A stretch of 55,305 bases of DNA from Candidatus Magasanikiibacteriota bacterium. Its GTDB lineage: Bacteria > Patescibacteriota > Patescibacteriia > Magasanikbacterales > UBA922. The DNA lies in the NCBI GenBank assembly GCA_016193335.1, contig JACPSK010000004.1, positions 1 through 55,305 on the forward strand, in the 5' to 3' direction. This document shows positions 1,408 to 51,493 of the stretch, one piece after another (position 1 is the first letter of the stretch; the number at the start of each line of letters is the position of its first letter). The notes beneath the pieces are model-generated. The model worked only from the letters and a program-made list of their open reading frames with translations. It did not search any database and was not told the origin of the DNA. The position numbers were made by a program, and so were the translations under genes.

Positions 1408-1574
1408 ATTAAAATTAAAAATTAACATTTAACGATTGGCAATTAACTCGTTCCCGAAAGAAGTTAATGGTTGATGGTGAAATGTTAAGATTGTTACCAA
1501 AGAGCTGACTGATCATTACAATTCAATCGTGGAAAAATTGCAAAAGCAAAGAAGCACTTTTCAGTGCTTCTGTA

Positions 1575-4983
<3,409 letters not shown>

Positions 4984-5033
4984 GAAGCACTGAGCAGTGC
5001 TTTGCAATGCAATTAAAATTAAAAGAGACAGTA

Positions 5034-6667: not shown

Positions 6668-7618
6668 ATGTGGCATAGTATGGATAGGAATTTAGCTTTG
6701 GAATTCGTACGAGTAACCGAAGCCGCCGCCATAGCTTCTGCAGGGTGGCTCGGGCGCGGCAACAAACACGCGGCAGACCAGGCGGCCGTGGACGCCATGC
6801 GTGATCGTTTTAATTTTATAGATTTTTCAGGAGAAGTGGTAATCGGTGAAGGCACAAAAGATCAAGCCCCGGAATTGTATATTGGCGAGAAATTGGGGAA
6901 TGGAAACGGCGCTGAGTTTGATATCGCGGTGGATCCTTTGGAATGCACGGACAGCGTGGCCAATGGCAAGCCAAACGCTATGTCGGTGGTAGCTACAGGC
7001 GCAAAAGGCGCTTTGTTCAAAGCTCCTGACACGTATATGGATAAGATAGCCTGCGGACCCGCGGCTAAGGGTGCCGTAGATCTTGACGCATCGGTGGAAG
7101 AAAATATAGGCCGCGTGGCTGAGAAATTGAAAAAACATATTTCGGAAATGGTTCTTGTGGCTTTGGATAGAGATTATAATAAAGAAACAATAGAAGAAAT
7201 CAGACGCGTGGGGGCAAGAGTCTTACTTATCAGCGATGGAGACGTGGCCGGAGCCATAGCCACTTGTTTGCCGGATTCTGGAATAGATTTGCTCATTCAA
7301 AAAGGGGCCAGCGCGGAAGGGGTTTTGGCCGCTGTGGCCATAAAATGTTTGGGGGGTGATTTTCAAGGACGTTTGTCTCCAAAGAATGAAGAGCATTTGG
7401 CCCGAGCCAAAGCTATGGGTATAGAAGATGTTGGCCGCAAACTGAGCATGGAGGATCTCGCCCGTGGCGAAGATTTGACTTTTACAGCCAGCGGGGTGAT
7501 AGACGGGCCCTTGCTAAAAGGGGTACGTTATAGCGGGGGATATTGTGTCACTCATTCCGTGGTTATGAGAGTGCGGAGCGGGACCTTGAGGTTTTTGGAG
7601 ACCAGGCATAGAGTATAG
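6668..7618 (+). CDS. glpX: class II fructose-1,6-bisphosphatase (GlpX family)
   Basis: LALEFVRVTEAAAIASAGWLGRGNKHAADQAAVDAMR...VIGEGTKDQAPELYIGEKLG...DIAVDPLECT closely parallels GlpX. An alternative start is ATG 6680. Confidence 0.9.
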   Translation: MWHSMDRNLALEFVRVTEAAAIASAGWLGRGNKHAADQAAVDAMRDRFNFIDFSGEVVIGEGTKDQAPELYIGEKLGNGNGAEFDIAVDPLECTDSVANGKPNAMSVVATGAKGALFKAPDTYMDKIACGPAAKGAVDLDASVEENIGRVAEKLKKHISEMVLVALDRDYNKETIEEIRRVGARVLLISDGDVAGAIATCLPDSGIDLLIQKGASAEGVLAAVAIKCLGGDFQGRLSPKNEEHLARAKAMGIEDVGRKLSMEDLARGEDLTFTASGVIDGPLLKGVRYSGGYCVTHSVVMRVRSGTLRFLETRHRV

Positions 7619-7636
7619 GGTTTGAGTGATCTAGGA

Positions 7637-7720
7637 CACGAATCGACACGAATAGAACGAATTGAAAGAGACTGGATTCTAGCTTGTATATTGAATTATT
7701 ACAGATTCGTTGGATTCGTT
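7637..7720. promoter_or_regulatory. phased direct and inverted ACGAAT repeats in the fbaB upstream region
   Basis: cacgaat at 7637, cacgaat at 7647 and aacgaat at 7657 (10-bp phasing). Inverted copies attcgtt lie at 7705 and 7714, next to A/T-rich -10-like boxes. Confidence 0.4.
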
Positions 7721-7742
7721 TATATTTGTGTTCTATACTCAT

Positions 7743-8825
7743 ATGCCAAAAGTTACTGATTACGCGTCTATTCAAGGAATTCTCGGTAAAGACGCGGAAT
7801 CTCTCTTGCATTTTGCCAGTCCTAAAATTTTAAAAGAACGGCTTCACGCGCCCGCGCCGAATTTTTTGGATGAGGTTTTTTCGATTTCAGACCGGAATAA
7901 AACAGTTTTGAAAAATTTGAAGGCTTTGCGGGATCATGGGCGTCTTTCAGGGACCGGCTATTATTCCATTTTGCCGGTTGACCAAGGTATAGAACATTCG
8001 GCCGGGGGAAGTTTTGCAAAAAATCCGGACTATTTTGATCCTGAAAATATCGTCAAGCTTGCTCTCGAAGCCGGCTGTAACGCAGTGACTTCCACGCTTG
8101 GCGTTCTTGGAATGGTGAGCAAAAAATACGCGGACAAGATTCCTTTTATCGTCAAATTGAATCACAATGATTTTCTTCGTTACCCGAATGATTATGACCA
8201 ACACTTGTTCGCGAGTGTTCGGCAAGCTGCGGACATGGGGGCGAGAGGCGTGGGGGCAACGGTGTATTTTGGTTCGAGAGAATCGGCGAGACAAATACAA
8301 GAAGTAAGTGAAGCCTTTGCAGAAGCTCATCGTTTGGGCCTGTTTACCGTACTTTGGTGCTATCTCAGAAATAATGCTTTTAAAGTTGAAGGAACAGATT
8401 ATCATGATTCAGCGGATCTCACCGGACAGGCAAACCATCTGGGAGTTACCATTGAGGCGGATATCATAAAACAAAAATTGCCGGTGAAAAACGGCGGGTA
8501 CGAGGCTTTGAACACCGGGGACAAAAAATTTGGAAAATACGACGAGCGGATGTACAGCGAACTGTGTTCAGATCATCCTATAGATTTGTGTCGTTACCAG
8601 GTGGCGAATTGTTATATGGGCAGAATAGGGCTTATAAATTCGGGCGGAGAGAGCGGAGATAGCGACCTTGCTGACGCGGTAAAAACAGCGGTCATCAACA
8701 AACGGGCCGGAGGTTCCGGGCTCATACTCGGGCGCAAAGCTTTTCAAAAATCTTTTAAAGAAGGAGTGGAAATCATTCATGCTGTACAGGATGTGTATTT
8801 GTGCAAAGAGATAGAGGTGGCTTGA
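7743..8825 (+). CDS. fbaB: class I fructose-bisphosphate aldolase (FbaB/DhnA type)
   Basis: Near-colinear with E. coli FbaB as I recall it: [76 protein letters not shown]. The ATG at 7743 is preferred to the ORF-track start at 7710. Confidence 0.9.
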
Positions 8826-8843
8826 TGTCTGGTATCATTTTTT

Positions 8844-8870
8844 GAGAGGCGGGTAGCACGCCTCTTTTTT
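8844..8870 (+). terminator. intrinsic terminator after fbaB
   Basis: gagaggcg-ggtagca-cgcctc followed by tttttt. Confidence 0.65.
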
Positions 8871-8918
8871 GTTAAATATATATGTATATAGCTCCGAATT
8901 GACCGGGGTTTTTTGATA

Positions 8919-8947
8919 TTGACCAGGCTTTTGAACTGTGCTAGATT
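8919..8947 (+). promoter_or_regulatory. promoter candidate TTGACC-17-TAGATT
   Basis: ttgacc at 8919-8924 (a second ttgacc lies at 8899), a 17-nt spacer, then tagatt at 8942-8947, upstream of the GC-rich kinase gene. Confidence 0.35.
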
Positions 8948-8985
8948 TTATTTTGGGCAACAAGGAAGCATGGAGGCTAATACAG

Positions 8986-9993
8986 ATGATTCCGACTTTT
9001 GAGGGGGCAAGGATTTTCGTTGTCGGGGACTTGATTCTCGACAGCTTCACCTATTGCAGGAGGACAAGAACTTCGTCAGAAGACGGCCGTGCTTTTTGCG
9101 TGGACGTGGTCAAGCACGAATTGCAGATTGGCGGCGCGGGCAATGCCGCTCGCTGTGTGCGTGCTCTTGGCGGTTCGCCCGCCGTGTTCGCGGTGAGTGG
9201 CGCGGGCTACCATGCCCGGAAGCTGAATGACGCCCTCGTCGACGCGGGCGTGGATAGCGCTCTTGTGCGTACGGATGAACGTCCGACTACGTACAAGGAT
9301 CGCAACCGTGACGTTGACACCGGCGAACTTTTGCTGGTGGTTGAGCGACAGGATCGTTCGCCTATCCCGACTTGGGTTGGTGACGGTTTGCTCGGCCGTT
9401 TCGCGAGTGCTGCCGCCACGCGGCCACACGTGGTACTCGTCTCGGATTACGACCGAGGCGTGGTAACCGAACACGTGGCCAAGGGTGTCTCCCGCCTTTC
9501 CCAGAAGTGGGGGATTCCTCTCATCGTGGATGCCAGAGAGCGTCCTTTGGCTTGGTACAAACAAGCCTTTAAGTATCTGAGCCTGCTCACGCCCAACCGC
9601 CGAGAGCTGAGTAAGGTTGTTGGCCGAGAGCTCAATACTTCGGCTGAGATTGACACGGCGGCTCGAGAGGTCGCCGAGGCTCTGGACTGCGATGTGCTCG
9701 TTACCTTGTCCGAACAGGGTGCTCGGCTTTACACTCGAGACGGGCGAGTGCATCGCTTTGATGCCAAGAACGGCAGGCCTGTCTCGGTGTCCGGGGGCGG
9801 CGACGCGCTCGTCGCGGCCATCTCGGTTTGCCTCGCCAAGGGTATCCTCCTGGCCGAGGCCTGTGAGATCGCGCAGCACGCAGCCGCGGTATGCGTGGGT
9901 AAACCCGGCACAGACGTGTGTAGCTACGCAGAGCTGCTGGCTCACATCGAGAGCCACCCGCCGCGTTCCAAGAGGTCTGCTTCAGCCTGTTAA
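8986..9993 (+). CDS. PfkB-family carbohydrate kinase (HldE/RfaE kinase-domain-like), compositionally foreign
   Basis: ARIFVVGDLILDS, GGAGNAARCVRALGG, TPNRRELSKVVG and GGGDALVAA motifs. GGAGG lies 9 nt upstream of ATG 8986. The gene is much more GC-rich than its flanks. Confidence 0.75.
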   Translation: MIPTFEGARIFVVGDLILDSFTYCRRTRTSSEDGRAFCVDVVKHELQIGGAGNAARCVRALGGSPAVFAVSGAGYHARKLNDALVDAGVDSALVRTDERPTTYKDRNRDVDTGELLLVVERQDRSPIPTWVGDGLLGRFASAAATRPHVVLVSDYDRGVVTEHVAKGVSRLSQKWGIPLIVDARERPLAWYKQAFKYLSLLTPNRRELSKVVGRELNTSAEIDTAAREVAEALDCDVLVTLSEQGARLYTRDGRVHRFDAKNGRPVSVSGGGDALVAAISVCLAKGILLAEACEIAQHAAAVCVGKPGTDVCSYAELLAHIESHPPRSKRSASAC

Positions 9994-16031: not shown

Positions 16032-16085
16032 CCTCGAATTTTGAACAAGCCGGTATGTAATGGCGAGGGCATACATAAAATATAT

Positions 16086-19000
16086 ATGTCTCAATTCATA
16101 GATATCCAACGCATGAAGGAATTGTACGATCGGATGCGCGCTGAGCTTTCTTCTCTGCGCGGTTGTTTGGGGCGGCCTCTTCTTTTGTCTGAAAAGATTT
16201 TGTACACCCATTTTTATGATAAGGCAATCTCAGCCGATCTGATAGAACGCGGGAAAACCGAGCTTCGCTTGAAACCGGACCGCGTGGTGATGCAAGACGC
16301 CACCGCGCAAATGACTCTGCTCCAGTTTATGAGCGCCGGAATGGATAGCGTGCTTACTCCGTCTTCGCTACATTGCGATCATCTGATTCGCGCCCGCGAT
16401 GGAGCGGCAGAAGACATGGAACGGGCCATGCAAGAAAATAAAGAAGTATACGCCTTCTTATCTTCGGCATGCCAAAAATACGGTATTGATTTTTGGGAAC
16501 CAGGTTCAGGGATTATTCATCAGGTTAATTTGGAGCATTACGCGTATCCGGGCGCTTTGTTTGTAGGGACCGATTCCCATACCCCCAATGTGGGAGGCCT
16601 TGCCTTGTTGGCCGTTGGCGTTGGCGGTGCGGAAGCCGTGGATCCTATGACAGGCCAGGCCTGGACTCTTCGCGCGCCCAAACATGTGGGAGTGTTTTTG
16701 AAAGGGAATTGCTCCGGCTGGACTTCACCAAAAGATATTATATTGAAAGTTTGTTCTCTCATGACCGTAAAAGGCGGTACAGGGAAAATTTTGGAATACT
16801 TTGGAGAAGGAGCCCGATCCCTGAGCTGCACGGGCAAAGCTACCATTTGCAATATGGGCGCTGAACTGGGAGCCACGACTTCAATTTTTTCTTATGATGA
16901 ACAGATGTCAGAATATCTCAGAGCGACAGGAAGAGACGATGTGGCAGATCTGGCCGAGTCTTACGCGGATCTTTTGTCGGGTGATCCCGAAGTGTATGAA
17001 AATCCGGCCCTATATTTTGATGAAGTTATTGAAATAGATCTGAACGCTCTTGAACCTGGCTTGACCGGGCCAGACACCCCAGACGCGTATCATCCGGTTT
17101 CCAAGCTAAAGGGTTTAGCGGAACATTGTCAGATACCGAATACTATTGACGTCTGTCTGGTTGGAAGCTGTACCAATTCATCGTATGAAGATATAAGGAG
17201 AGTGGCCGAACTTTGTGATTTTGCCGACCGGAAAGGACTGAAATTGCGTTCCCGTTTTATGCTTACCCCTGGTTCGAGACAGATAGAAGAAACGATGAAA
17301 CGCGATGGTTATGTTGCCATCTTTGAAAAAGTAGGAGCGACGATTTTGAGCAATGCCTGCGGACCCTGCGTGGGTCAATGGGACAGAAATGACCTTCCGA
17401 AAGAACAAAAAAGCGTGGTAGTTTCCAGTTTTAATAGGAATTTTAAACGGCGCAATGACGGAAGAGCAGAAACCTACGCCTTTGTCGCGAGTCCGGAAAT
17501 CACCACCGCGCTGGCTTTTGCAGGCAGACTCGATTTTAATCCTTTGGAAGATTCTCTCGAAAATGAAGCAGGGGAAGCAATTCGTTTTGAGATAAAAACA
17601 ACTCAAAGTCTGCCCACGGTCGGTTTTGCCGCTACAGAGCGAGATGGCTTTGTGAAACCTTCGGAAGATCCTCGTTCATTGAAGGTAGAGGTAGGTCCAG
17701 ACAGCGACAGGATTCAGCTTCTCGAAGCTTTTAATGTGTGGAATCTTGAAAAAGATTTTACGGATTTGGTGGTTTTGGGTAAGGCGAAAGGAAAGTGCAC
17801 TACAGATCATATTTCTCCGGCCGGAGTGTGGTTTAAATATAGAGGACATCTCGATAATATCAGCAACAATTTATTTATTGGGGTCAATAACGCATTTTGT
17901 CCGGACGAAGGTAAGGGACATTATATAGAAAGCGGAAGAACTGATGAATTGAATAAAATTGCTCGGCGCTATAAGGAACAGAAAATTGGCTGGATTTTTG
18001 TGGCAGATGAAAATTATGGCGAAGGTTCAAGCCGAGAACACGCGGCCATGGAGCCTCGCTATCTTGGCTGCAGGGCCATCATAGCCAAAAGTTTTGCCCG
18101 CATTGCTGAGACTAATCTTAAAAAACAAGGATTACTTGCCCTCCAACTCAAAAATGCCAATGACTACGAAAGTATCCAGGAAAAAGACAAGATTTCCATT
18201 ATAGGTCTTTCCGAACTTGCTCCTGGCAGAGATATTATTGTGGAATTGAACCATTCAGACGGCAGCACAGATTTGATTTCCTGCGCGCATTCATTGAGTT
18301 TGGAGCAGATTGCCTGGTTTTACGCGGGTTCGGCGCTCAATGACGCAGGGCAGAAGCTTAAAAAAGCCTCTGTCGGTGCATCTGTTCCAAAAGAGACTTC
18401 CGCATTCGCGGAATTCAAAAAAATAAAAGTTCAGAATCCCATTGTGGAAATAGATGGCGATGAGATGGCGCGGGTTATCTGGCAGATGATAAAGGAGCGG
18501 CTTATTTTGCCTTATCTTGATATTGATATTAGATATTTTGATTTGCATATAAAAAATAGAGAGCGGACTGATGACCGCGTGACCGGTGAAGCGGCAGAAG
18601 CGATTAAGACATATAAGGTTGGCATCAAATGCGCGACTATTACTCCGAATAAGGCGCGCGTGGAAGAGTATACACTCAAGAAAGAATATAAATCGCCGAA
18701 TGGCACTATTCGCAATACGCTTGGCGGCACGGTATTTCGCGCGCCCATCGTTATTAAGAATATACCGAGACTGGTACCTGCTTGGCAACGCCCTATCGTG
18801 GTTGCCCGTCACGCGCACGCGGATCAGTACAAAGCTCTTGAGATGAATATCGATATTCCAGGCAAGCTGAGCATGAAATTCGCGGGAGCGGATACTTCGC
18901 TTCGCGAAGAGTCTCTGTATGAATACAAAACTCCGGGCATCGCGATTGGCATGTACAATACATTGGAATCTATAGAAGATTTCGCGCGCAGTTGCTTTCA

Positions 19001-19646
19001 ATATGGTCTTTTGATGAAGTACCCGGTGTATTTTAGCGCCAAAGAAACCATTTTAAAAATATATGATACCGCGTTCAGAGATATATTTCAGAACATTTTC
19101 GAAATTGAATTTAAGGAACGCTTTCTCGCGGCCGGCATATTCTATGATTACAAACTGATTGACGACATGGTGGCTCGGGTTCTCAAAATGGAAGGTGGTT
19201 TTGTCTGGGCCCTCAAGAACTATGACGGAGACGTTCAGTCTGACATGGTGGCCCAAGGTTTTGGTTCTTTGGGGCTCATGACTTCTGTGCTCATGTGTTC
19301 TGATGGCAAGACCATAGAAACCGAAGCGGCTCATGGCACGGTAACCCGCCATTATCAATTGCATAAAGAGGGGAAGCAGACGAGCACCAACCCTATGGCG
19401 AGTATTTTTGCGTGGACCCGCGGGCTCGCTCATAGGGGGAAACTGGATGAAAATCCGCGTTTGATTAGCTTTTCGGAAACGCTTGAGCGTGTTTGCGTGG
19501 AGACTGTTGAAAGCGGCTGTATGACTCAAGATCTGGCACGAGCTGTCCATGCCACAGAAGATCCGCCGGAAGGATCTTGGCTTAGCACTGAAGAATTTTT
19601 TTCAGAAATTGAAAAAAGGTTCGAGCAAGAAATTCAAAGCATATAA
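16086..19646 (+). CDS. fusion protein: mitochondrial-type aconitase (N, to ~18365) + type-II homodimeric NADP isocitrate dehydrogenase (C, from ~18417)
   Basis: The N part has [44 protein letters not shown] and [11 protein letters not shown], and ends [12 protein letters not shown] like the aconitase C-terminus. A linker [17 protein letters not shown] follows. The C part then has [51 protein letters not shown] and [16 protein letters not shown], as in IDH1/2-type IDH. It is a single uninterrupted frame. ATG 16086 is preferred over TTG 16041. Confidence 0.85.
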
Positions 19647-19742: not shown

Positions 19743-20909
19743 ATGAATCTCTACGAATTCGAGGGGAAACATTTTTTTGAAAAGAGCGGTATTGCGGTTC
19801 CTAAAGGAATTATGGTATCGCGTGGCATGGACTATGCCACTGCGTATCAGAATTTGGGATTGACCGAAGTCGTGATAAAGGCGCAAGTTCTTTCCGGCAA
19901 AAGAGGCAAAAATAATGGCATACGTTTTTGCTCTTCGGCCGAGGGGGTGAATCGTGTCTGTACAGAACTCTTCGATTCGGAGCTGAATGGTCAATACATT
20001 TCGGCTCTGCGAATTGAAGAAAAATTGGACATAGCTGAGGAACATTACATGTCTATAAGCTATGATACCAATTCCAAACAGCCGGTTTTCATATACAGCA
20101 AAGAAGGAGGAATGGATATAGAAGACGTGGATGATGGGAACATCGACACATACATGCTGGATATCCGAGAGGATATGCTTTCGGTGCAAGCAAATAAAAA
20201 TGATTTCCCTTTAGAAATCGCCTTGAAATTATGGAATTGTTTTAAACAAAATGATGCTCGAATGGTGGAAATAAATCCTTTGGTAAAGACAAGCGGGGGT
20301 TTATGGATAGCGGCTGACGCCAAAATGGCTTTGGATGATGATGCTTTTTATCGTCATGAGGAATGGAGGAATCTCGAGCCTCGGAGCATGATGGGCAGGC
20401 CTGTCACGGATAGGGAAATTGAAGTTAAAAAAATTGATGAAGGGGAAAAATATTATCAGGGTACAGCGGGCAAATATATAGAAATGAACGGAGACATAGC
20501 GATATTGTTTTCCGGTGGCGGCGCGAGTATCGCGAACATGGATGCCTTGATAAAGGCTGGTTTGAAACCGGCAAATTATACTGAGTACTCCGGAAACCCG
20601 CCGAGAGAAAAAGTTTTTGAACTGACGAAAATTGTGCTCTCTAAACCCGGATTGCGGGGGTTGTGGATAGCCGGCGGTGTGGCCAATTTTACCAATATAA
20701 AAGAAACATTCAATGGGATTGTTGACGCCTTTGACGAACTCAAGCCGTCCTATCCGATTGTCGTGCGTCGGGCAGGGCCTTATGAAAGCGAAGGAATGGA
20801 ATTGATGCGAGACTGCGCGGCCAGGAACAATTTGAACATTCGTTTTTTTGGCAAAGAAACATCTATGAGCGAAACCGCGGGAGTCTTGGCGGGTATGTTG
20901 AATAATTGA
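19743..20909 (+). CDS. ATP-grasp SucC-like subunit; probable citryl-CoA synthetase large subunit (or succinyl-CoA synthetase beta)
   Basis: MNLYEFEGKHFFEKSGIAVPKG resembles the SucC/AclB N-terminus. The product is ~388 aa from ATG 19743. Gene context includes a citryl-CoA-lyase-like gene. Confidence 0.7.
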   Translation: MNLYEFEGKHFFEKSGIAVPKGIMVSRGMDYATAYQNLGLTEVVIKAQVLSGKRGKNNGIRFCSSAEGVNRVCTELFDSELNGQYISALRIEEKLDIAEEHYMSISYDTNSKQPVFIYSKEGGMDIEDVDDGNIDTYMLDIREDMLSVQANKNDFPLEIALKLWNCFKQNDARMVEINPLVKTSGGLWIAADAKMALDDDAFYRHEEWRNLEPRSMMGRPVTDREIEVKKIDEGEKYYQGTAGKYIEMNGDIAILFSGGGASIANMDALIKAGLKPANYTEYSGNPPREKVFELTKIVLSKPGLRGLWIAGGVANFTNIKETFNGIVDAFDELKPSYPIVVRRAGPYESEGMELMRDCAARNNLNIRFFGKETSMSETAGVLAGMLNN

Positions 20910-20993: not shown

Positions 20994-21890
20994 ATGGCTA
21001 TACTTATAGACAAAAACAGCAAAGTACTCATTCAGGGCATCACGGGCAAAGAAGGCCAAAAAGCCGCTCAGGCCATGATTGCGTATCACACTAATGTGGT
21101 GGGTGGGGTGCGTCCTGGCAAAGCCGGAGAAATGGTGGAAGGCAGACCGGTTTTCAATACAGTAGGCGAGGCTCTGGAAGCTGTCCCCGATATTTCGGTA
21201 AGTGCGATTTATGTGCCCCCTTTCGCCGCAAAAGCCGCTATGATGGAGGCTATAGACGCGGGTTTGCCACAAATCAATGTAATTGTAGAGCGTATCCCAA
21301 TCCAAGATACTGCCTACTGTTTGGCCGCGGCAAGAGAAAAAAATATCAGAATTATTGGCCCCAGTTCATTGGGTTATATCGCGCCCGGCCTTGGTAGGAT
21401 CGGCGTGGTGGGAGGGCCCGAGCAATTGGTGAATGAGATTTATCAGCCCGGCGGTATTGGGATTATATCTCGTTCCGGAGGCATGACCAATGAAGTCAGC
21501 TGGCAGATTCGAAAAGCCGGTTTGGGACAGAGCACGGCCGTGCACGCGGGCGGTGATTTGCTTATGGGTATGACCTATACTGATTTGCTCAAGGATTTTG
21601 AAAAGGATGAACAAACAAAAGCCGTGGTTATTTTCGGTGAACACGGAGGTAGTTATGAATTTGAGATCGTGGAATTGATTCAAGATAAGGGATATACCAA
21701 ACCCCTTGCCATATATATAGGAGGTAAATTCGCGCAGGTTCTGCCCGAGGGTATGAATATAGGCCATGCGGGGGCTATAGTAGAGCGGGGAAAGGGCGCG
21801 GTAGAGAAAGAAGCGGCTTTGAAGTCCGCCGGCGTCATGATCGCCGAACGCTATGAAGATTTGGTCGAATTGGTGAAGCCCCATGTTTAG
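20994..21890 (+). CDS. SucD-like CoA-binding subunit; probable citryl-CoA synthetase small subunit
   Basis: ILIDKNSKVLIQGITGKEG, IISRSGGMTNE and the phosphohistidine loop NIGHAGAIV. Confidence 0.75.
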   Translation: MAILIDKNSKVLIQGITGKEGQKAAQAMIAYHTNVVGGVRPGKAGEMVEGRPVFNTVGEALEAVPDISVSAIYVPPFAAKAAMMEAIDAGLPQINVIVERIPIQDTAYCLAAAREKNIRIIGPSSLGYIAPGLGRIGVVGGPEQLVNEIYQPGGIGIISRSGGMTNEVSWQIRKAGLGQSTAVHAGGDLLMGMTYTDLLKDFEKDEQTKAVVIFGEHGGSYEFEIVELIQDKGYTKPLAIYIGGKFAQVLPEGMNIGHAGAIVERGKGAVEKEAALKSAGVMIAERYEDLVELVKPHV

Positions 21891-21942: not shown

Positions 21943-22668
21943 ATGAGATTTAAAACATCCATCACGCGCATTGAAGAAGGCAAAGAAATTATACGCGGGC
22001 ATGAGCTTAGAGATTTGGTTCGAGAGAACAATTTTTCAGAGTCCATTTATTTGATTCTGAAAGGGAAACTTCCAAACAAACAAGAGGCCCGCATGTTTGA
22101 CGCCATTTTGACTTCGGTTATAGACCATGGCCCCGGAGTGGCATCGGCTATCGCGGCTCGAGTTTCAGCGAGCGCGAAAAATAGCATGCATACGTCTCTC
22201 GCCGCCGGTATTTTGAGTTTTGGGGACCGGCATGGCGTAGCTTCTGGGGCTGCCATGAAATTTTTTTATGATCATATTAAAGACTCGGATTTGGAAGCTA
22301 CTCTCAAGAGTATGAAAGAGAAAAAAGAATACGTTCCGGGTTTGGGTCATAAACTATTTCAAAAAGAAGATCCACGCTCGACGACACTCTTTGAAATCGC
22401 CAAAGAAACAGGAATCTTCGGGTCTTATTGTGTTTTTGCTCTAGCTGTATCTGAGATTTCAAACAGACTCTCTTCAAAAATGCTTCCGCTCAATGTTGAC
22501 GGAGCCATAGCGGCCATACTCTGCGACATGGGCTTTGATTATAGACTGGGAAAAGGTATATTTATGATAGGAAGAGTTCCTGGTCTTATCGCTCATATTT
22601 ATGAAGAAACGCTTAATGATGAAGGCATACGGCGCATTCCAGAGGAACAAATTGATTACACGGATTGA
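21943..22668 (+). CDS. short citrate-synthase-family protein; probable citryl-CoA lyase
   Basis: 241 aa. DHGPGVAS, SFGDRHGVASG and PGLGHKLFQKEDPRS correspond to the citrate-synthase catalytic core (GxGHxx...DPR). Confidence 0.7.
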   Translation: MRFKTSITRIEEGKEIIRGHELRDLVRENNFSESIYLILKGKLPNKQEARMFDAILTSVIDHGPGVASAIAARVSASAKNSMHTSLAAGILSFGDRHGVASGAAMKFFYDHIKDSDLEATLKSMKEKKEYVPGLGHKLFQKEDPRSTTLFEIAKETGIFGSYCVFALAVSEISNRLSSKMLPLNVDGAIAAILCDMGFDYRLGKGIFMIGRVPGLIAHIYEETLNDEGIRRIPEEQIDYTD

Positions 22669-22705
22669 TTGAATTTTATTATTTTTTTGAGATGGATTCC
22701 TGTGT

Positions 22706-23158
22706 ATGTTAAATGTTTTACTTGGGTTTTTCCTGGTGATTTTGACGAGCTACACCTCGGTATTTGCTTTATTTTTTTTAGTGAAATACTTGAGTGGCTG
22801 GAAGGAATTGGAGCAGATTTATCCTGCATCCCGAACAGATGAAACCGGCCCAAAGAGATATTTCGTGAGTTTAAGGTTGAATTGGCTTTCTTACAATAAT
22901 AGCGCCAAGCTCGAGGCATTGAACGGAGGATTGCGGATACAGCAAACTTTTTTTGGTTTTTTTGGAACACACAAACCGGCTTTTATCCCCTGGACTGAAA
23001 TTTTTTATGTCGAAAAAACAGAAAATCCCGGAGTTTTTGTTCGAAATGAATACTTGTTCCGCTTGAGCCGTTTAAATAGACTTTCTTTGCGAATTCCGTC
23101 TCGGGTCGGGTCTTGGATTCTCGAGCAAAAGAATTTTTATACATTGCCCAGATCTTGA
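22706..23158 (+). CDS. hypothetical membrane-anchored protein
   Basis: 150-aa ORF with an N-terminal hydrophobic helix LLGFFLVILTSYTSVFALFFLV. I recognise no family. Confidence 0.45.
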   Translation: MLNVLLGFFLVILTSYTSVFALFFLVKYLSGWKELEQIYPASRTDETGPKRYFVSLRLNWLSYNNSAKLEALNGGLRIQQTFFGFFGTHKPAFIPWTEIFYVEKTENPGVFVRNEYLFRLSRLNRLSLRIPSRVGSWILEQKNFYTLPRS

Positions 23159-23305
23159 TGTCCTACGATTAGGGCATGGAGGCTTAGATACCAGGCGACA
23201 ATAGACACTTACCACAGATACGCGGCCGAATACGCCAGACGGAGCGATCCGCTTCTTTATTACTTTATTACATTTTTTGAACGCATTTCTAAGGAGACTC
23301 TCAAT

Positions 23306-24580
23306 ATGATTAAACAGATTCTCGACCTGCACATCCATTCAAAATATTCCCGTGCTTGTTCGAAACATCTGGATTTTGAAACCATTGCCAAGACCTGCGA
23401 GATTCGAGGAATAAATATCGTGGCGACGGGAGATTTTACTCATCCGAAATGGTTTGCGTCAATCAAGGAAGAATTAAAAGAAGTGAACCCGGGTCTTTAC
23501 GCGCTTAAGAATGGATCCAGTAAAACGAGATTTATTATTGGCACTGAAGTGGCCAGTATAAAAAAACATAAGGGCAAAACGAGGCGCGTGCATCTGCTTT
23601 TGTTTGCTCCGACTTTGGAAACAGCCGAGCGTTTTAATGGGGAACTCATGCGGCGGGGTTTTAACGTGCGCGCGGACGGACGTCCCATTCTTGGTTTAAC
23701 TTCGAAAGAACTTTTGGAATTGATGCTGAACGTGGATAAACGCATGGTTATGATTCCTGCTCACGCGTGGACGCCCTGGTTTGGCATATTTGGATCCAAA
23801 GGCGGCTATGACTCTGTGGAAGAAGCTTTCGATGAATATTCCAGCCAGGTATTCGCGATTGAGACCGGACTCTCGAGCGACCCATTGATGAATTGGCGGA
23901 TTTCCGGCCTTGATCGGCTTACCCTTATTTCAAATTCCGACGCCCATAGCCCGCAGAAGCTCGGACGCGAGGCCAACGTGATGGCCTTTGATTCTGAATC
24001 CGAGATCAGTTATGACGGGATCATGCGTCTTATTCGCGAAGGCGACAAAAACAAATTTTTATATACTATTGAATTTTATCCTGAAGAGGGGAAGTATCAT
24101 CTGGATGGGCATAGCGCTTGCGGCTTTGTATGTCATCCGAGCGAAACGAAAAAATACGCCGGTCTTTGTCCAAAATGCAAAAAACCTTTGGTTATAGGTG
24201 TGATGAATCGAGTGTCCGAGCTTGCGGACAGAGATGAAATTCAGGCCAAGCGCTCGGCGCGTATTCCATACAAAAGTCTTGTTCCTTTGCCGGAAATCAT
24301 TGCCGACGTTTTGGGAAAAGGAGTACATACCAAATCTGTTCAAGCCGAATATACTAAACTTGTGAGAGGGCTCGGTTCTGAATTTTTTATTTTACTCGAG
24401 GCCCGGCTTGAAGATATAGCTCTGTCCAGCTCTTCTCGGATTGCCGACGCGGTTGATCGAGCGCGTCGCGGGGATATTTACATCAAGCCCGGCTTTGATG
24501 GAGTTTTTGGAGTAGTAAAAATTTTTGCTGATCATGAAAAAAAAGAAGAAGCGGCCCAAGGATCTTTTTTATTGGATTGA
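23306..24580 (+). CDS. PHP-domain protein of the endonuclease Q (EndoQ / TIGR00375) family
   Basis: DLHIHSKYS, RVHLLLFAP, ADGRP, PAHAWTPW, SNSDAHSPQKLGRE, GKYHLDGH, Zn-ribbon CPKCKK and C-terminal PGFDGVFG. At 424 aa it is the same length as archaeal EndoQ. AAGGAG lies 9 nt upstream of the start. Confidence 0.75.
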   Translation: MIKQILDLHIHSKYSRACSKHLDFETIAKTCEIRGINIVATGDFTHPKWFASIKEELKEVNPGLYALKNGSSKTRFIIGTEVASIKKHKGKTRRVHLLLFAPTLETAERFNGELMRRGFNVRADGRPILGLTSKELLELMLNVDKRMVMIPAHAWTPWFGIFGSKGGYDSVEEAFDEYSSQVFAIETGLSSDPLMNWRISGLDRLTLISNSDAHSPQKLGREANVMAFDSESEISYDGIMRLIREGDKNKFLYTIEFYPEEGKYHLDGHSACGFVCHPSETKKYAGLCPKCKKPLVIGVMNRVSELADRDEIQAKRSARIPYKSLVPLPEIIADVLGKGVHTKSVQAEYTKLVRGLGSEFFILLEARLEDIALSSSSRIADAVDRARRGDIYIKPGFDGVFGVVKIFADHEKKEEAAQGSFLLD

Positions 24581-24716
24581 TACCAGGCTTGCCGGCCGGG
24601 AATCTTGGATTTTAATTTTTTTGCTCGCTATCTTGGTGAATAGTTTTTTGCTCCCCGGTCCAGTAAAGGCTGTTCACCATTAGAGTGTTCTTGAACCCGG
24701 ATTTTTATAGAAACAC

Positions 24717-24740
24717 AAAACCCCCATTTAGGGGGTTTTT
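24717..24740. terminator. bidirectional intrinsic terminator
   Basis: aaaaccccc-attta-gggggtttt, flanked by A/T runs on both sides. Confidence 0.7.
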
Positions 24741-24754
24741 GCGTGAAATAGTGA

Positions 24755-24856
24755 TTATTTCTTCTTGCGTTTTGCAGCTTTTCGTTTGGCTGGTTTGCGT
24801 TTTGCAGCTTTTCGTTTGGCTGGTTTGCGTTTTGCAGCTTTTTTGCGTGTTGGCAT
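24755..24856 (-). CDS. 33-aa Lys/Ala/Arg-rich basic protein (MPTRKKAAKRKPAKRKAAKRKPAKRKAAKRKKK), histone-H1-tail-like composition
   Basis: Found by hand translation of the third minus-strand frame. A G-rich RBS (gggaaggggg) lies ~8 nt upstream of the ATG and the stop TAA lies 14 nt before the terminator at 24717-24740. The ORF is below the track's size cut-off. Confidence 0.55.
   Translation of the reverse strand: MPTRKKAAKRKPAKRKAAKRKPAKRKAAKRKKK
24767..24842. repeat. perfect 30-bp tandem repeat x2.5 (gcgttttgcagcttttcgtttggctggttt)
   Basis: Copies at 24767-24796 and 24797-24826, with a partial copy at 24827-24842. The repeat encodes the KPAKRKAAKR unit of the small ORF on the minus strand. 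Confidence 0.9.
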
Positions 24857-25221
24857 AATGTACACCCCCTTCCCTTGGGAAATTGTCGCACATGTTTTGG
24901 TATGACCATGGTACACACCAAATTACATACCATCGCGACAGAAGAAATATTTACGTGACAAGCATTGACGTAAAAATTTCCTGAAACATCTGTGTCTCGA
25001 CCTTTTGGAGTAGTATAACCTTTTTTTAATGTTAAAAACATAGTTTGCAATACTGAGCTGTGAATAACTTTTATTTTTTTAGAAATTAAACATCGTGTGT
25101 GTTTCGTTTGTTTGTTTATTTTTTTAAAAAGAATATTTGTTTCTATTTTTTTGAGTATGAATGTAATTCGAATGAATGAGCCCGCAGAAACCCGCGGGGA
25201 ATTTATCTGCGGGGGTTGGAA

Positions 25222-25262
25222 ATCAAAAAAGAAAAAAGGCGGCCGATTTTACCGGACGCCTT
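25222..25262 (-). terminator. intrinsic terminator downstream of the tRNA pair
   Basis: On the minus strand: aaggcg-tccggtaaaatcggc-cgcctt followed by ttttcttttttg. Confidence 0.5.
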
Positions 25263-25394
25263 CGAGTATTTGAATTTCACTTTTTGTCTCGAATTTGGGA
25301 CGAACCTCGCGCTGAAATGAAGATTGATTCAAAAAAATGAAAAGAAACTTGATATTTTTTTTAAAATTTTTTCTCCTGCTAATTCAAAGTATTG

Positions 25395-25466
25395 TCCTCC
25401 CGGAGGGAATCGAACCCCCATCGCAGGTTCCGGAAACCTGTGTTCTATCCATTGAACTACGAGAGG
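25395..25466 (-). tRNA. tRNA-Arg (anticodon CCG)
   Basis: Manual cloverleaf: acceptor cctctcg/cgggagg, D arm gttc-aatggata-gaac, anticodon arm caggt-ttCCGga-acctg, T arm ggggg-ttcgatt-ccctc. CCA is not encoded. Confidence 0.8.
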
Positions 25467-25480
25467 ATTCTCTATGACTG

Positions 25481-25556
25481 TGGTGCGCCTGGGTGGATTC
25501 GAACCACCGACTCCGACGTTATAAGCGTCGTACTCTAACCGCTGAGTTACAGGCGC
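25481..25556 (-). tRNA. tRNA-Ile with genomically encoded UAU anticodon
   Basis: Manual cloverleaf: gcgcctg-ta-actc-agcggtta-gagt-a-cgacg-ctTATaa-cgtcg-gagtc-ggtgg-ttcgaat-ccacc-caggcgc-a-cca. The body resembles bacterial tRNA-Ile. Confidence 0.8.
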
Positions 25557-25647
25557 GGATTTATTGGAATCACGGTAAAGGCACAAGGATCTTGTCCAGG
25601 GATGAGTAATGGTTTGTCCGTGTGGCTCTATAATATACTAAGACGAT

Positions 25648-25676
25648 AATGTACCATAGAAGGCTTGATTTTTCAA
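25648..25676 (-). promoter_or_regulatory. promoter candidate for the tRNA pair (TTGAAA-17-TACATT on the minus strand)
   Basis: The -35 is the reverse complement of 25671-25676 and the -10 is the reverse complement of 25648-25653. It sits back-to-back with the rluD promoter. Confidence 0.45.
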
Positions 25677-25693
25677 GTCATATTTACTATACT
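25665..25693 (+). promoter_or_regulatory. promoter candidate TTGATT-17-TATACT
   Basis: ttgatt at 25665-25670 and tatact at 25688-25693, with the ATG at 25708. Confidence 0.45.
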
Positions 25694-25707
25694 CTTCGGA
25701 CATATAT

Positions 25708-49816: not shown

Positions 49817-49891
49817 TCCCCTGTAGTTCAATGGTAGAACACCTCGCTGTTAACGAGGACGTTGTAGGTTCGAGTCCTACCGGGGGAGCCA
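49817..49891 (+). tRNA. tRNA-Asn (anticodon GUU), CCA encoded
   Basis: tcccctg-ta-gttc-aatggta-gaac-a-cctcg-ctGTTaa-cgagg-acgtt-gtagg-ttcgagt-cctac-cggggga-g-cca. Confidence 0.9.
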
Positions 49892-51493
49892 TATGGGATG
49901 AGCAGAGCCAAAAGCTCTGCTTTTCTCTTTATTTACGGGCTTATTCAGATGTTCGAATATTTTATTTTGGTCTATTTTCTCTCCCATAAGCTCGCCGACT
50001 CGGTCAAAGATGATTTTAAACGCTTTGTGGAATGAAACCTCGACTTTTTTGCCGTTTAGCGTGGTGTTCGAAAAAATCAGGGACAAAAGCAGTTTCTTGT
50101 CGTCCACCATCTCCTGTTTGTCCCGGTTGATGTAAATTTTCCATGCCTTCTTGGCCACTTGCAGGACTGTCTCTCCCATTTCGTAGTACTTCAGGTTGGC
50201 ATCCTTGTGCTTATTGAGGCTGTCCAGTATCTGTTCTTGCTCGACTTTGTACTGGTCGTACTTCTTTTTGTAAAATTCCTCGCTGATTTTCTCGTCGATC
50301 TTGTCATCGTATATCTTATCCAGCCGTTGCGTGGCGACTTCATACCGGCGGTTGAGCTCGGCCGTGGACTTGTCGCGGAATTCTATCTCCTCGCTATGGC
50401 TTTCTTTGAGGGCTTCCTGAACCCATGAAAGCATGCTTTCTACGGCCTGCTCACCTTTGGGATTTAAGGTATTGATGGTTTCTATCAACTGCGTATCCAA
50501 GACCTCCTGCCGGACAAACTCCCGTTGTTGGCAGTTTTTGTAATGGTTGCAGTGACCGTACCAGTGGCCTCGTTGTATTTCCCAAGTTATCCGGCCCTTG
50601 CATTCGTTGCATCGGAAGACATTTTTAAAGAACGGATTATGCTTGAAGTATCTCGGCGTACCGTTGGCGTGCATTATCTCCTGGCACCGGTCGAATAATT
50701 CCTTGGTGATAAGCGGCTCGTGTCCGCCTTTGGTCAGCCGGTTATTCCAGCGATTCATGCCAAAGTAGAACGGATCGCCTAAGAGCTGATGGACTCGCGA
50801 GTGGCTCACTTTATTTCCTCCTCGGGACCGCATACCCTGCTCGTGCATGACATCCGCAAGTTTTTTAGTTGAATAGCGGTTGCTGGCATAAAGATCAAAC
50901 ATTTTCTTGACTAGCGGTGCTTTGTCTGGATCAGGCACATGGATTTTGTGCCCTTTCTCGCCGACGGTTTTATATCCAAGCGGCGGTTTGGCCGGAAGCC
51001 AGCCTTGCGAGAGTTTTTCTTTCTGTCCTTTTCTTACGTTTTCGGAAAGCAGACGGATGTAGTATTCGGCTGTGGCAACTTTCACTCGCCACATAAACCA
51101 CTCATGCGACTTGGAGTCTTTGTGGAGCGTACAGCTTTCTTTGACGAGATGGATCGTGTGCTTTTCATCGGCCAGTATCCACTCGTCTATGACCGGCACA
51201 TCGGCGAAGTTTCTGGTGAGACGGTCAGTTGTTTCCACAAAGACCGTATTGATCTTGGCCTTGGTTACGAACGCCATCATTTCGTGGAATATCTTGCGCT
51301 GGATTTTTCCGGCGGCCGATTCCTGAATGGCAAACACTTTTACGAGCTCATAGCCATTCCGGTCGGCATAGTCCCGTAAAAGTTTCTCCTGGGCCGGTAG
51401 CGAGTAGCCGGTGTCCTCCTGATCCTTGGAAGACACCCGGGCGTAGCCTACGGCTTGCATCGATTGATTTTCTTGATTCATTGTCATAGTCAT
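49877..51493 (-). CDS. large serine recombinase (phage-integrase-type)
   Basis: Resolvase catalytic motif VGYARVSSKDQ, a recombinase domain, the zinc ribbon CNECKGR...HCNHYKNC, and a long coiled-coil C-terminal region; 538 aa. Confidence 0.9.
   Translation of the reverse strand: MTMTMNQENQSMQAVGYARVSSKDQEDTGYSLPAQEKLLRDYADRNGYELVKVFAIQESAAGKIQRKIFHEMMAFVTKAKINTVFVETTDRLTRNFADVPVIDEWILADEKHTIHLVKESCTLHKDSKSHEWFMWRVKVATAEYYIRLLSENVRKGQKEKLSQGWLPAKPPLGYKTVGEKGHKIHVPDPDKAPLVKKMFDLYASNRYSTKKLADVMHEQGMRSRGGNKVSHSRVHQLLGDPFYFGMNRWNNRLTKGGHEPLITKELFDRCQEIMHANGTPRYFKHNPFFKNVFRCNECKGRITWEIQRGHWYGHCNHYKNCQQREFVRQEVLDTQLIETINTLNPKGEQAVESMLSWVQEALKESHSEEIEFRDKSTAELNRRYEVATQRLDKIYDDKIDEKISEEFYKKKYDQYKVEQEQILDSLNKHKDANLKYYEMGETVLQVAKKAWKIYINRDKQEMVDDKKLLLSLIFSNTTLNGKKVEVSFHKAFKIIFDRVGELMGEKIDQNKIFEHLNKPVNKEKSRAFGSAHPIWLPR

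Follow-up and report, generated by a model that had tools for sequence, protein, structure and literature searches.

A probable aconitase–isocitrate dehydrogenase gene fusion at the head of a citrate-cleavage operon in a bacterium of the Candidate Phyla Radiation

The window analysed here is a stretch of 55,305 nucleotides from a Candidatus Magasanikiibacteriota bacterium (assembly GCA_016193335.1, contig JACPSK010000004.1, positions 1 to 55,305 of the forward strand). It contains an open reading frame (ORF) in which an aconitase (Acn) is joined in frame to an NADP-dependent isocitrate dehydrogenase (IDH). The gene fusion is likely to be genuine, and its product is likely to be a single bifunctional polypeptide of 132 kDa, encoded by the first gene of a citrate-cleavage operon. 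Both halves belong to well-known families, of which they are ordinary members, and there is therefore nothing new in the chemistry or the fold. The novelty is the Acn–IDH architecture, which is apparently unique, along with its occurrence in a genome of the Candidate Phyla Radiation (CPR) and its place at the head of an operon for citryl-CoA synthetase (CCS) and citryl-CoA lyase (CCL). The most informative context is the downstream CCS and CCL genes and the CPR host. The parts of the fused gene are as follows.

16086–19646 (stop codon included), + strand: fused acn–idh ORF, 1186 aa, 132.2 kDa
16086–18341, + strand: aconitase half, mitochondrial type, with the Aconitase domain and the Aconitase_C swivel domain, residues 1–752
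18342–18416, + strand: connector, residues 753–777, with Phe777 in place of the IDH start methionine
18417–19646, + strand: NADP-isocitrate dehydrogenase half, type II, of the IDH1/2-like homodimeric family, residues 778–1186

A preliminary description of this DNA had claimed one uninterrupted ORF of about 1186 aa carrying both enzymes in frame, each of them complete. The ORF listing of the window agrees with the first point: the ATG at 16086 gives 1186 aa, and an alternative TTG start at 16041 gives a product of 1201 aa. Pfam finds Aconitase at residues 36–480 (E 5e-137), Aconitase_C at 564–690 (E 8e-35) and Iso_dh at 781–1154 (E 3.5e-51). In NCBIfam, TIGR01340 (aconitase_mito) scores 963.3 bits against a cut-off of 825.35, with residues 14–752 covering model positions 1–743 of 745. 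Residues 778–1184 match NF006156 (NADP-IDH; 661.3 bits, cut-off 335) and TIGR00127 (nadp_idh_euk; 607.8 bits, cut-off 397), and they span model positions 1–408 of 409, so the IDH half is of full length. Profile scores this large on a 3.6-kb ORF exclude a chance origin. The full-length matches above the cut-offs, with the alignments to PDB structures given below, confirm that both enzymes are complete. The halves had also been assigned to eukaryote-like subfamilies. Their membership of TIGR01340 and TIGR00127 supports this, but such subfamilies are widespread in bacteria and the best matches of the two halves come from Ignavibacteria, Binatia, Sumerlaeia, Melainabacteria and Alphaproteobacteria. 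There is therefore no sign of a eukaryotic origin.

Both halves look functional, judging from the residues conserved in alignments with known enzymes. The N-terminal half aligns with positions 18–746 of 754 of pig mitochondrial aconitase (5ACN) at 849 bits. The cluster ligands Cys362, Cys425 and Cys428, in the motifs GSCTNSS and CGPC, align with pig Cys358, Cys421 and Cys424. Gln72, Asp100/His101, His147, Asp165/Ser166/His167 and Asn258/Glu262 are retained in the 5ACN alignment, as are Asn446/Arg447/Arg452 and Ser642/Ser643/Arg644 (5ACN numbering), and the GSSREH motif is present. The IDH half aligns over its full length with the Sinorhizobium IDH 3US8 (561 bits) and with IDH2 (558 bits). It retains VFRxPI, RHAxxDQY and the NADP motif HGTVTRH, and all the substrate- and metal-binding motifs that were checked are kept. 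Mapped by these motifs, the counterparts of IDH1 Thr77, Ser94, Arg100, Arg109, Arg132, Tyr139, Lys212, Asp252, Asp275 and Asp279 are in place, and HGTVTRH corresponds to the NADP motif His309–His315 of IDH1.

The junction can be compared with free ends of the same families. Past the G-S-A-L-N motif, the tail of 117 stand-alone homologous aconitases is 4–21 residues long (median 7), with KAGEDLRGKE or KIGEELRKRLKSS as the tail of the closest ones. Before DGDEM, the head of 116 stand-alone IDHs has 12–17 residues (median 13) and is typically M-x-KIKVxNPVVEL. Set against these tails and heads, some 10 residues of the connector are native aconitase tail and about 14 are new, and the IDH head is complete apart from the change of Met to Phe (Phe777, TTC). 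The preliminary description gave a linker of about 17 residues. The string it quoted lies exactly at residues 761–777 (nucleotides 18366–18416), and the end and start motifs it quoted at the junction are also found in the ORF, but the connection is better taken as about 25 residues, from 753 to 777. It is rich in Ala, Ser, Lys and Glu and is flanked by two A-runs. The GC content of the connector (about 72–75 nt) is 0.50, compared with 46% for the fused ORF and a mean of 34% (range 16–48%) for the 28 intergenic spacers of the window; it is coding-like. The reading frame has neither a stop nor an ATG, GTG or TTG codon between residues 740 and 786. The first canonical starts for the IDH are Val787 (GTG) and Met794, and either would delete the first IDH β-strand (KIKVQNPIV). 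The other two frames contain stops at the junction and no start able to give the IDH. N-terminal extensions are tolerated in the type-II IDH family, the IDH2 presequence being an example. An AlphaFold2 model built from a mixed aconitase and IDH alignment was discarded; MAFFT had misplaced the aconitase C-terminal domain, and residues 562–776 had pLDDT below 50.

Separate acn and idh genes with just a stop and a short spacer between them are common. They occur in the closest relative of the fusion (L001, described below), in Clostridia (L039, L040 and L047) and in 80 metagenome loci. These pairs are so close that a single error, such as a miscalled stop or a missed indel, could mimic a fusion, and the frameshift-ridden contig L054 carries a doubtful apparent fusion of exactly this kind. 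The A-runs on both sides of the connector would also suit such an error. An artefact of assembly or sequencing in the window is nevertheless extremely improbable. An identical product of 1201 aa is encoded on seven contigs that come from different sequencing runs and include run-level Logan assemblies of SRR12113422 and SRR12113383, so that the same ORF is present in seven independently assembled contigs as well as in the deposited record. L006 is 100% identical to the window across 9.6 kb, and over 6.4 kb L007 shows a single mismatch to it. An artefact would need at least three changes, namely loss of the stop, maintenance of the frame over 75 nt and disappearance of the IDH start codon, all of them arising in the same way in several assemblies. 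The coding-like GC of the connector and the lack of an IDH-compatible start in the alternative frames speak against it as well. It is also very unlikely that the ORF yields two mature proteins, either by post-translational cleavage of the connector or by initiation of the IDH at an internal non-canonical start. The connector is probably exposed and flexible, and ATA (residue 780) and GTG (residue 787) codons are found near the IDH N-terminus. However, no canonical start lies ahead of the first IDH β-strand, which starts at Val787 or Met794 would remove, and the sequence 5′ of the IDH half is richer in GC than the real leaders of the window. A Shine–Dalgarno-like motif was found within 25 nt upstream of 4 of the 29 + strand genes, and most starts are preceded by AT-rich sequence. 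Translation initiation in the host genome thus seems largely independent of Shine–Dalgarno sequences, and since most genes do not have one, ribosome-binding sites cannot decide on internal initiation of the IDH.

When about 5.8 billion proteins were searched with the full-length sequence, both domains occurred together in the window's own protein alone; the next matches were stand-alone aconitases of at most 59% identity. A HMMER search of 1.84 billion cluster representatives, in which the fusion's own cluster was stood for by another protein, gave none covering both halves among the best 150, and fusions may hide inside clusters. A query spanning the junction did not return the window protein itself from the 5.8-billion-protein index and so cannot exclude long fused proteins; it did return P0273, discussed below. 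Among GTDB species representatives, scanned without the source genome, the loci matching both halves were from Clostridia only, and their genes were adjacent but separate (L039, L040 and L047). No diverged, independent Acn–IDH fusion was seen in the full-length search, the best 150 representatives, the GTDB representatives or the 80 metagenome loci, and no natural Acn–IDH fusion was found described in the full-text literature, where just Schizosaccharomyces pombe Aco2 and the fusion history of ATP-citrate lyase turned up. The earlier remark that this architecture was not known as characterised therefore holds across the protein, GTDB, metagenome and literature searches, none of which gave a second example. 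A 90% cluster search with ten window proteins found no relatives of at least 90% identity from other organisms.

One apparent second fusion was rejected. P0273 (258 aa) runs from Aconitase_C into Iso_dh in one frame, and its contig, L054, is unreliable: this archaeal-looking contig of 146 kb has the same gene order as the window and at least four frameshifts within its acn and idh genes. Its "linker" contains GGAGG, 10 nt and TTG, plus out-of-frame TAA and TGA codons. Among the Illumina-assembled relatives of P0273 in JGI metagenomes (L055–L134; 49–88% identity), all 80 of 80 loci place an in-frame stop codon after acn and ahead of idh. Just one or two stop codons part acn from the in-frame idh there, for example in L057 (3315–9699). 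Where only a stop separates the two, a single stop-codon change would create a fusion. The cluster of acn, idh and ccsA-, ccsB- and ccl-like genes was seen in metagenomes of wetland, peat and sediment, in uncultured lineages that look archaeal. In at least 22 unrelated loci of these metagenomes, acn and idh are followed in this order by the three genes for citrate cleavage. The five-gene cluster is thus widespread, unlike the fused state. Two other fused proteins, both uncharacterised, were noticed. P0122 (1099 aa; L136 5001–8300, JGI Ga0484955_0001923) joins a mitochondrial-type aconitase to a malate dehydrogenase (Ldh_1_N/Ldh_1_C); its gene is present on two contigs and is followed by a citrate synthase gene at 8424–9566. 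It is apparently another natural, undescribed fusion of tricarboxylic acid (TCA) cycle enzymes. P0185 (1163 aa), from the representative library, fuses a type-II Iso_dh (6–395) to a monomeric IDH (PF03971, 424–1157).

Both halves find their best match in L001 (GCA_964531415.1), at 59% identity for the aconitase and 70% for the IDH, above any GTDB representative. There too the pair belongs to a citrate-cleavage operon, in the gene order aclB-aclA-acn-idh, with acn and idh on the same strand and in the same order as in the fusion. A TAA stop and a 25-nt spacer lie between them, and idh is in the +1 frame. The window gene is most simply derived from an adjacent acn–idh pair of this kind, and the L001 arrangement looks like the pre-fusion state. 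In such an origin the aconitase stop, the short spacer and the IDH start codon would have been lost. The new stretch of 42 nt is similar in length to the 31 nt of stop, spacer and start in L001 that it replaces. The two loci differ in their citrate-cleavage genes: L001 has a two-subunit ATP-citrate lyase (ACL) upstream, whereas the window has CCS and CCL genes downstream, and the window's citrate-cleavage proteins are 28–34% identical to the ACL of L001. A gene for a CitMHS-family citrate transporter (7255–8526) lies immediately downstream of aclB-aclA-acn-idh in L001, a hint that imported citrate feeds this gene set.

The fused gene is followed on the same strand by four ORFs.

19743–20909, + strand: citryl-CoA synthetase large subunit, CcsA-like, with ATP-grasp_2 (PF08442) and Citrate_bind (PF16114); the gene call starts at ATG 19743 and the longest ORF begins at TTG 19653
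20994–21890, + strand: citryl-CoA synthetase small subunit, CcsB-like, with CoA_binding and Ligase_CoA and a GHAGA phosphohistidine loop at 257
21943–22668, + strand: citryl-CoA lyase, Ccl-like, 241 aa, matching only positions 164–354 of the Pfam Citrate_synt profile (C-terminal module)
22706–23158, + strand: ORF of 150 aa that matches no family and has a hydrophobic N-terminal segment, an uncertain last gene of the operon

The CcsA-like protein is below the NCBIfam cut-offs for succinyl-CoA synthetase beta, and its best PDB match is 6HXQ_B, the large subunit of Hydrogenobacter thermophilus citryl-CoA synthetase (208 bits, compared with 140 for succinyl-CoA synthetase beta). The CcsB-like protein scores 279 against an NCBIfam cut-off of 336 for succinyl-CoA synthetase alpha; its PDB matches are 235 bits for succinyl-CoA synthetase alpha and 209 bits for the CCS small subunit, and taken alone it cannot be distinguished from an alpha subunit. 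The Ccl-like protein matches citryl-CoA lyase 6HXP best (218 bits, with about 89 or less for citrate synthases) and carries DHGP, GLGHK..DPR and NVDG motifs. Since both synthetase subunits fall below the succinyl-CoA synthetase cut-offs, the operon reads acn~idh-ccsA-ccsB-ccl, possibly ending with the membrane-anchored ORF of 150 aa. A weak terminator-like hairpin is present at 23241–23255, but such sites are no commoner than in shuffled sequence; promoter and terminator scans from 15.5 to 25 kb gave no sites above the shuffled-sequence count.

The N-terminal module would be a [4Fe-4S] aconitase interconverting citrate, cis-aconitate and isocitrate, and the C-terminal module, joined to it by the flexible connector of about 25 residues, would interconvert isocitrate and NADP+ with 2-oxoglutarate, CO2 and NADPH. 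Active sites of type-II IDH are built from two subunits, so the fused protein should be an (Acn–IDH)2 dimer. Going by its family, it is probably a homodimer of about 264 kDa centred on the IDH, with two peripheral aconitases. At the aconitase equilibrium isocitrate makes up just a few per cent of the tricarboxylates; the fusion would fix a 1:1 stoichiometry and co-localise both activities around isocitrate. Channelling of isocitrate, raised in the preliminary description, is a hypothesis, and for a flexible tether it is not to be assumed. With its CCS and CCL genes, the operon would encode every step linking acetyl-CoA and oxaloacetate, citrate and 2-oxoglutarate, and it may form a compact "citrate node" for biosynthetic precursors in a CPR cell that probably has no full TCA cycle. 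We prefer a role in which the fused enzyme mainly converts citrate to 2-oxoglutarate with NADPH, supplying glutamate, while CCS and CCL either split citrate or, in reverse, make it with a gain of ATP.

Three modes of flux can be considered. In mode (a), the citrate node, CCS and CCL would form acetyl-CoA and oxaloacetate from citrate and Acn–IDH would form 2-oxoglutarate and NADPH, both branches running downhill. The CitMHS gene beside the L001 genes hints at this mode. In mode (b), which would be fully oxidative, CCL and CCS would run in reverse as an ATP-conserving citrate synthase; ATP-citrate lyase runs in this way in Desulfobacter postgatei. Mode (c) would be the reductive arm of a reverse TCA cycle. 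Table 1 of PMC13147460 gives ΔG values of −6.8 kJ/mol for aconitase (isocitrate to citrate), +11.7 for reductive carboxylation by IDH, −5.9 for CCS, −2.1 for CCL and −8.0 for ACL overall. By these values the interconversion of acetyl-CoA plus oxaloacetate and 2-oxoglutarate lies no more than about 3 kJ/mol from equilibrium (1 mM standard states), and either direction is therefore possible, the reductive one included. On thin evidence, we favour an oxidative role of the fused enzyme, by mode (a) or (b), because the genome codes for the synthesis of aromatic amino acids and glucosamine-6-phosphate, which creates a need for glutamate and 2-oxoglutarate, and because the window holds no reverse-TCA marker.

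That the operon is instead the reductive arm of a full or partial reverse TCA cycle, in which 2-oxoglutarate would be carboxylated to isocitrate and passed through citrate to acetyl-CoA and oxaloacetate, is possible, although we doubt it. The characterised CCS and CCL, from Hydrogenobacter only (6HXQ and 6HXP), cleave citrate for the reverse TCA cycle. The gene order also matches the reductive sequence from idh/acn to ccsA, ccsB and ccl, and the overall ΔG of the reductive chain is slightly negative by the values of PMC13147460. Such a pathway would correspond, in bacteria, to the reductive glutamine metabolism that runs through IDH, aconitase and ACLY. However, the carboxylation by IDH is itself unfavourable (+11.7 kJ/mol), and 2-oxoglutarate:ferredoxin oxidoreductase, pyruvate:ferredoxin oxidoreductase, fumarate reductase and other reverse-TCA markers are absent from the window. 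CPR bacteria are also not known to be autotrophs.

Several points weigh against the reading of the fusion as a functional bifunctional enzyme with an oxidative role. One population alone carries the fusion, and since it has no diverged ortholog, purifying selection cannot be demonstrated for the fused state. The window contains no gene for a citrate transporter, 2-oxoglutarate:ferredoxin oxidoreductase or glutamate dehydrogenase, and proximity alone seldom gives true channelling. The fusion might be real but neutral or very recent, tethering two independent enzymes without kinetic coupling or advantage. Its restriction to one population, the relatives that function with separate acn and idh genes and a tether of about 25 residues that sets no defined geometry would all fit, and yet we regard this as rather unlikely. 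Nothing is left of the IDH start codon, and the composition of the spacer has become coding-like and linker-like, which argues for more than one recent point mutation. A harmful fusion of two essential-pathway enzymes would also be purged from a genome under strong pressure to shrink; neither argument is proof. At the other extreme, the fusion could be a selected covalent "metabolon". The dimer would pass isocitrate directly from one active site to the other, and with CCS and CCL reversed it would serve an ultra-small CPR cell as an ATP-conserving substitute for citrate synthase, taking acetyl-CoA, oxaloacetate, ADP and Pi to citrate and ATP and then to 2-oxoglutarate and NADPH. We consider this distinctly unlikely; if it were true, a single operon of four genes would provide a symbiont without a TCA cycle with substrate-level ATP as well as precursors of glutamate.

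The passing of TCA intermediates within complexes has been debated for decades, mostly on the basis of engineered fusions or of weak complexes that form transiently. A covalent Acn–IDH of natural origin would be a clean, expressible test of the effect of tethering on flux through isocitrate, the least abundant intermediate. A CPR genome with aconitase, IDH, CCS and CCL contradicts the usual picture of a group without TCA chemistry, and it takes the range of CCS and CCL far past Aquificota and Leptospirillum. An easy route to fusion is shown by the unfused relative and by the many loci in which stops alone separate the in-frame acn and idh. Since the fusion is so easily made, its rarity is informative in itself.

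UvrA similarity places the host in the Patescibacteria (CPR), near the Magasanikbacteria: the best named relatives of its UvrA (64–79% identity) are Candidatus Magasanikbacteria, Parcubacteria and "Patescibacteria group". This group usually has no TCA cycle. The 23S rRNA gene (1570–4986) has 3417 nt compared with a model of 2925 nt; it thus carries about 490 nt of insertions, and the gene contains no ORF of 150 aa or more. Upstream of it lies an integrase gene (304–1146) and no 16S gene. The long 23S gene and the lack of a 16S gene upstream fit CPR bacteria. The integrase is a tyrosine recombinase (XerC/D-like) beside the rRNA genes. The rest of the window is ordinary chromosome, with 23S and 5S rRNA genes, glpX, a class-I aldolase gene, glmS, uvrA, a gene for RNase J, a cluster for shikimate and aromatic amino-acid synthesis, genes for TrpRS and TyrRS, and two recombinase genes. 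The second of these, a large serine recombinase (49877–51493), adjoins tRNA-Asn (49817–49891) and may be part of an element integrated at the window's right end. A gene for a PfkB-family kinase (8938–9993), overlapped by an antisense ORF (9076–9957), stands in a GC spike (0.61, about 0.45 in the window) and may have been acquired recently. Because the SRR numbers adjoin SRR12113421 (Modesto, California, 2018), we infer that the window comes from the groundwater project of He et al. 2021 (PMC7906910).

L135 (GCA_964522405.1) is syntenic with the region beyond the operon and shares tRNA-Ile(UAU), a pseudouridine synthase, Gmk, DsbA, UvrA, RNase J and the shikimate gene order. Synteny between window positions 22669–25707 and L135 1–1646 (UvrA 79%) holds from tRNA-Ile onwards and breaks on the operon side of the tRNA genes, where L135 has a DUF389 gene and then its contig end. 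The operon may thus sit in a variable region beside tRNA genes. The block of DsbA, a hypothetical protein and UvrA is inverted between the two genomes. The tRNA-Ile with anticodon UAU (25481–25556, − strand) is conserved in L135 (1317–1390). Given this unusual AUA-reading tRNA, the lineage may be independent of lysidine (TilS).

Compared with known enzymes, the fusion differs in how its parts are joined. Mitochondrial aconitase (ACO2; 5ACN and 7ACN) is a stand-alone monomer of about 750 aa in the mitochondrion, whereas in this CPR bacterium the aconitase tail runs into a second enzyme. IDH1, IDH2 and 3US8 have their own start, but the IDH half of the fusion has no initiator methionine and its N-terminus is tethered to the aconitase. 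The aconitase C-terminus likewise accepts a second folded protein in Schizosaccharomyces pombe Aco2, a fusion of aconitase and a mitoribosomal protein (bioRxiv 10.1101/2019.12.16.879015). In Aco2 and in P0122 the partner is not the enzyme of the next step, unlike in Acn–IDH. The CCS and CCL of H. thermophilus (6HXQ and 6HXP) are the closest relatives of solved structure to the CcsA-like and Ccl-like proteins of the window. ATP-citrate lyase is a fusion of the CCS small subunit and CCL (bioRxiv 10.1101/2022.10.25.513756) and provides a precedent for fusing consecutive steps of this pathway. Organisms with ACL have fused the citrate-cleavage steps; the window shows the opposite pattern, in which these steps are kept split and aconitase and IDH are fused.

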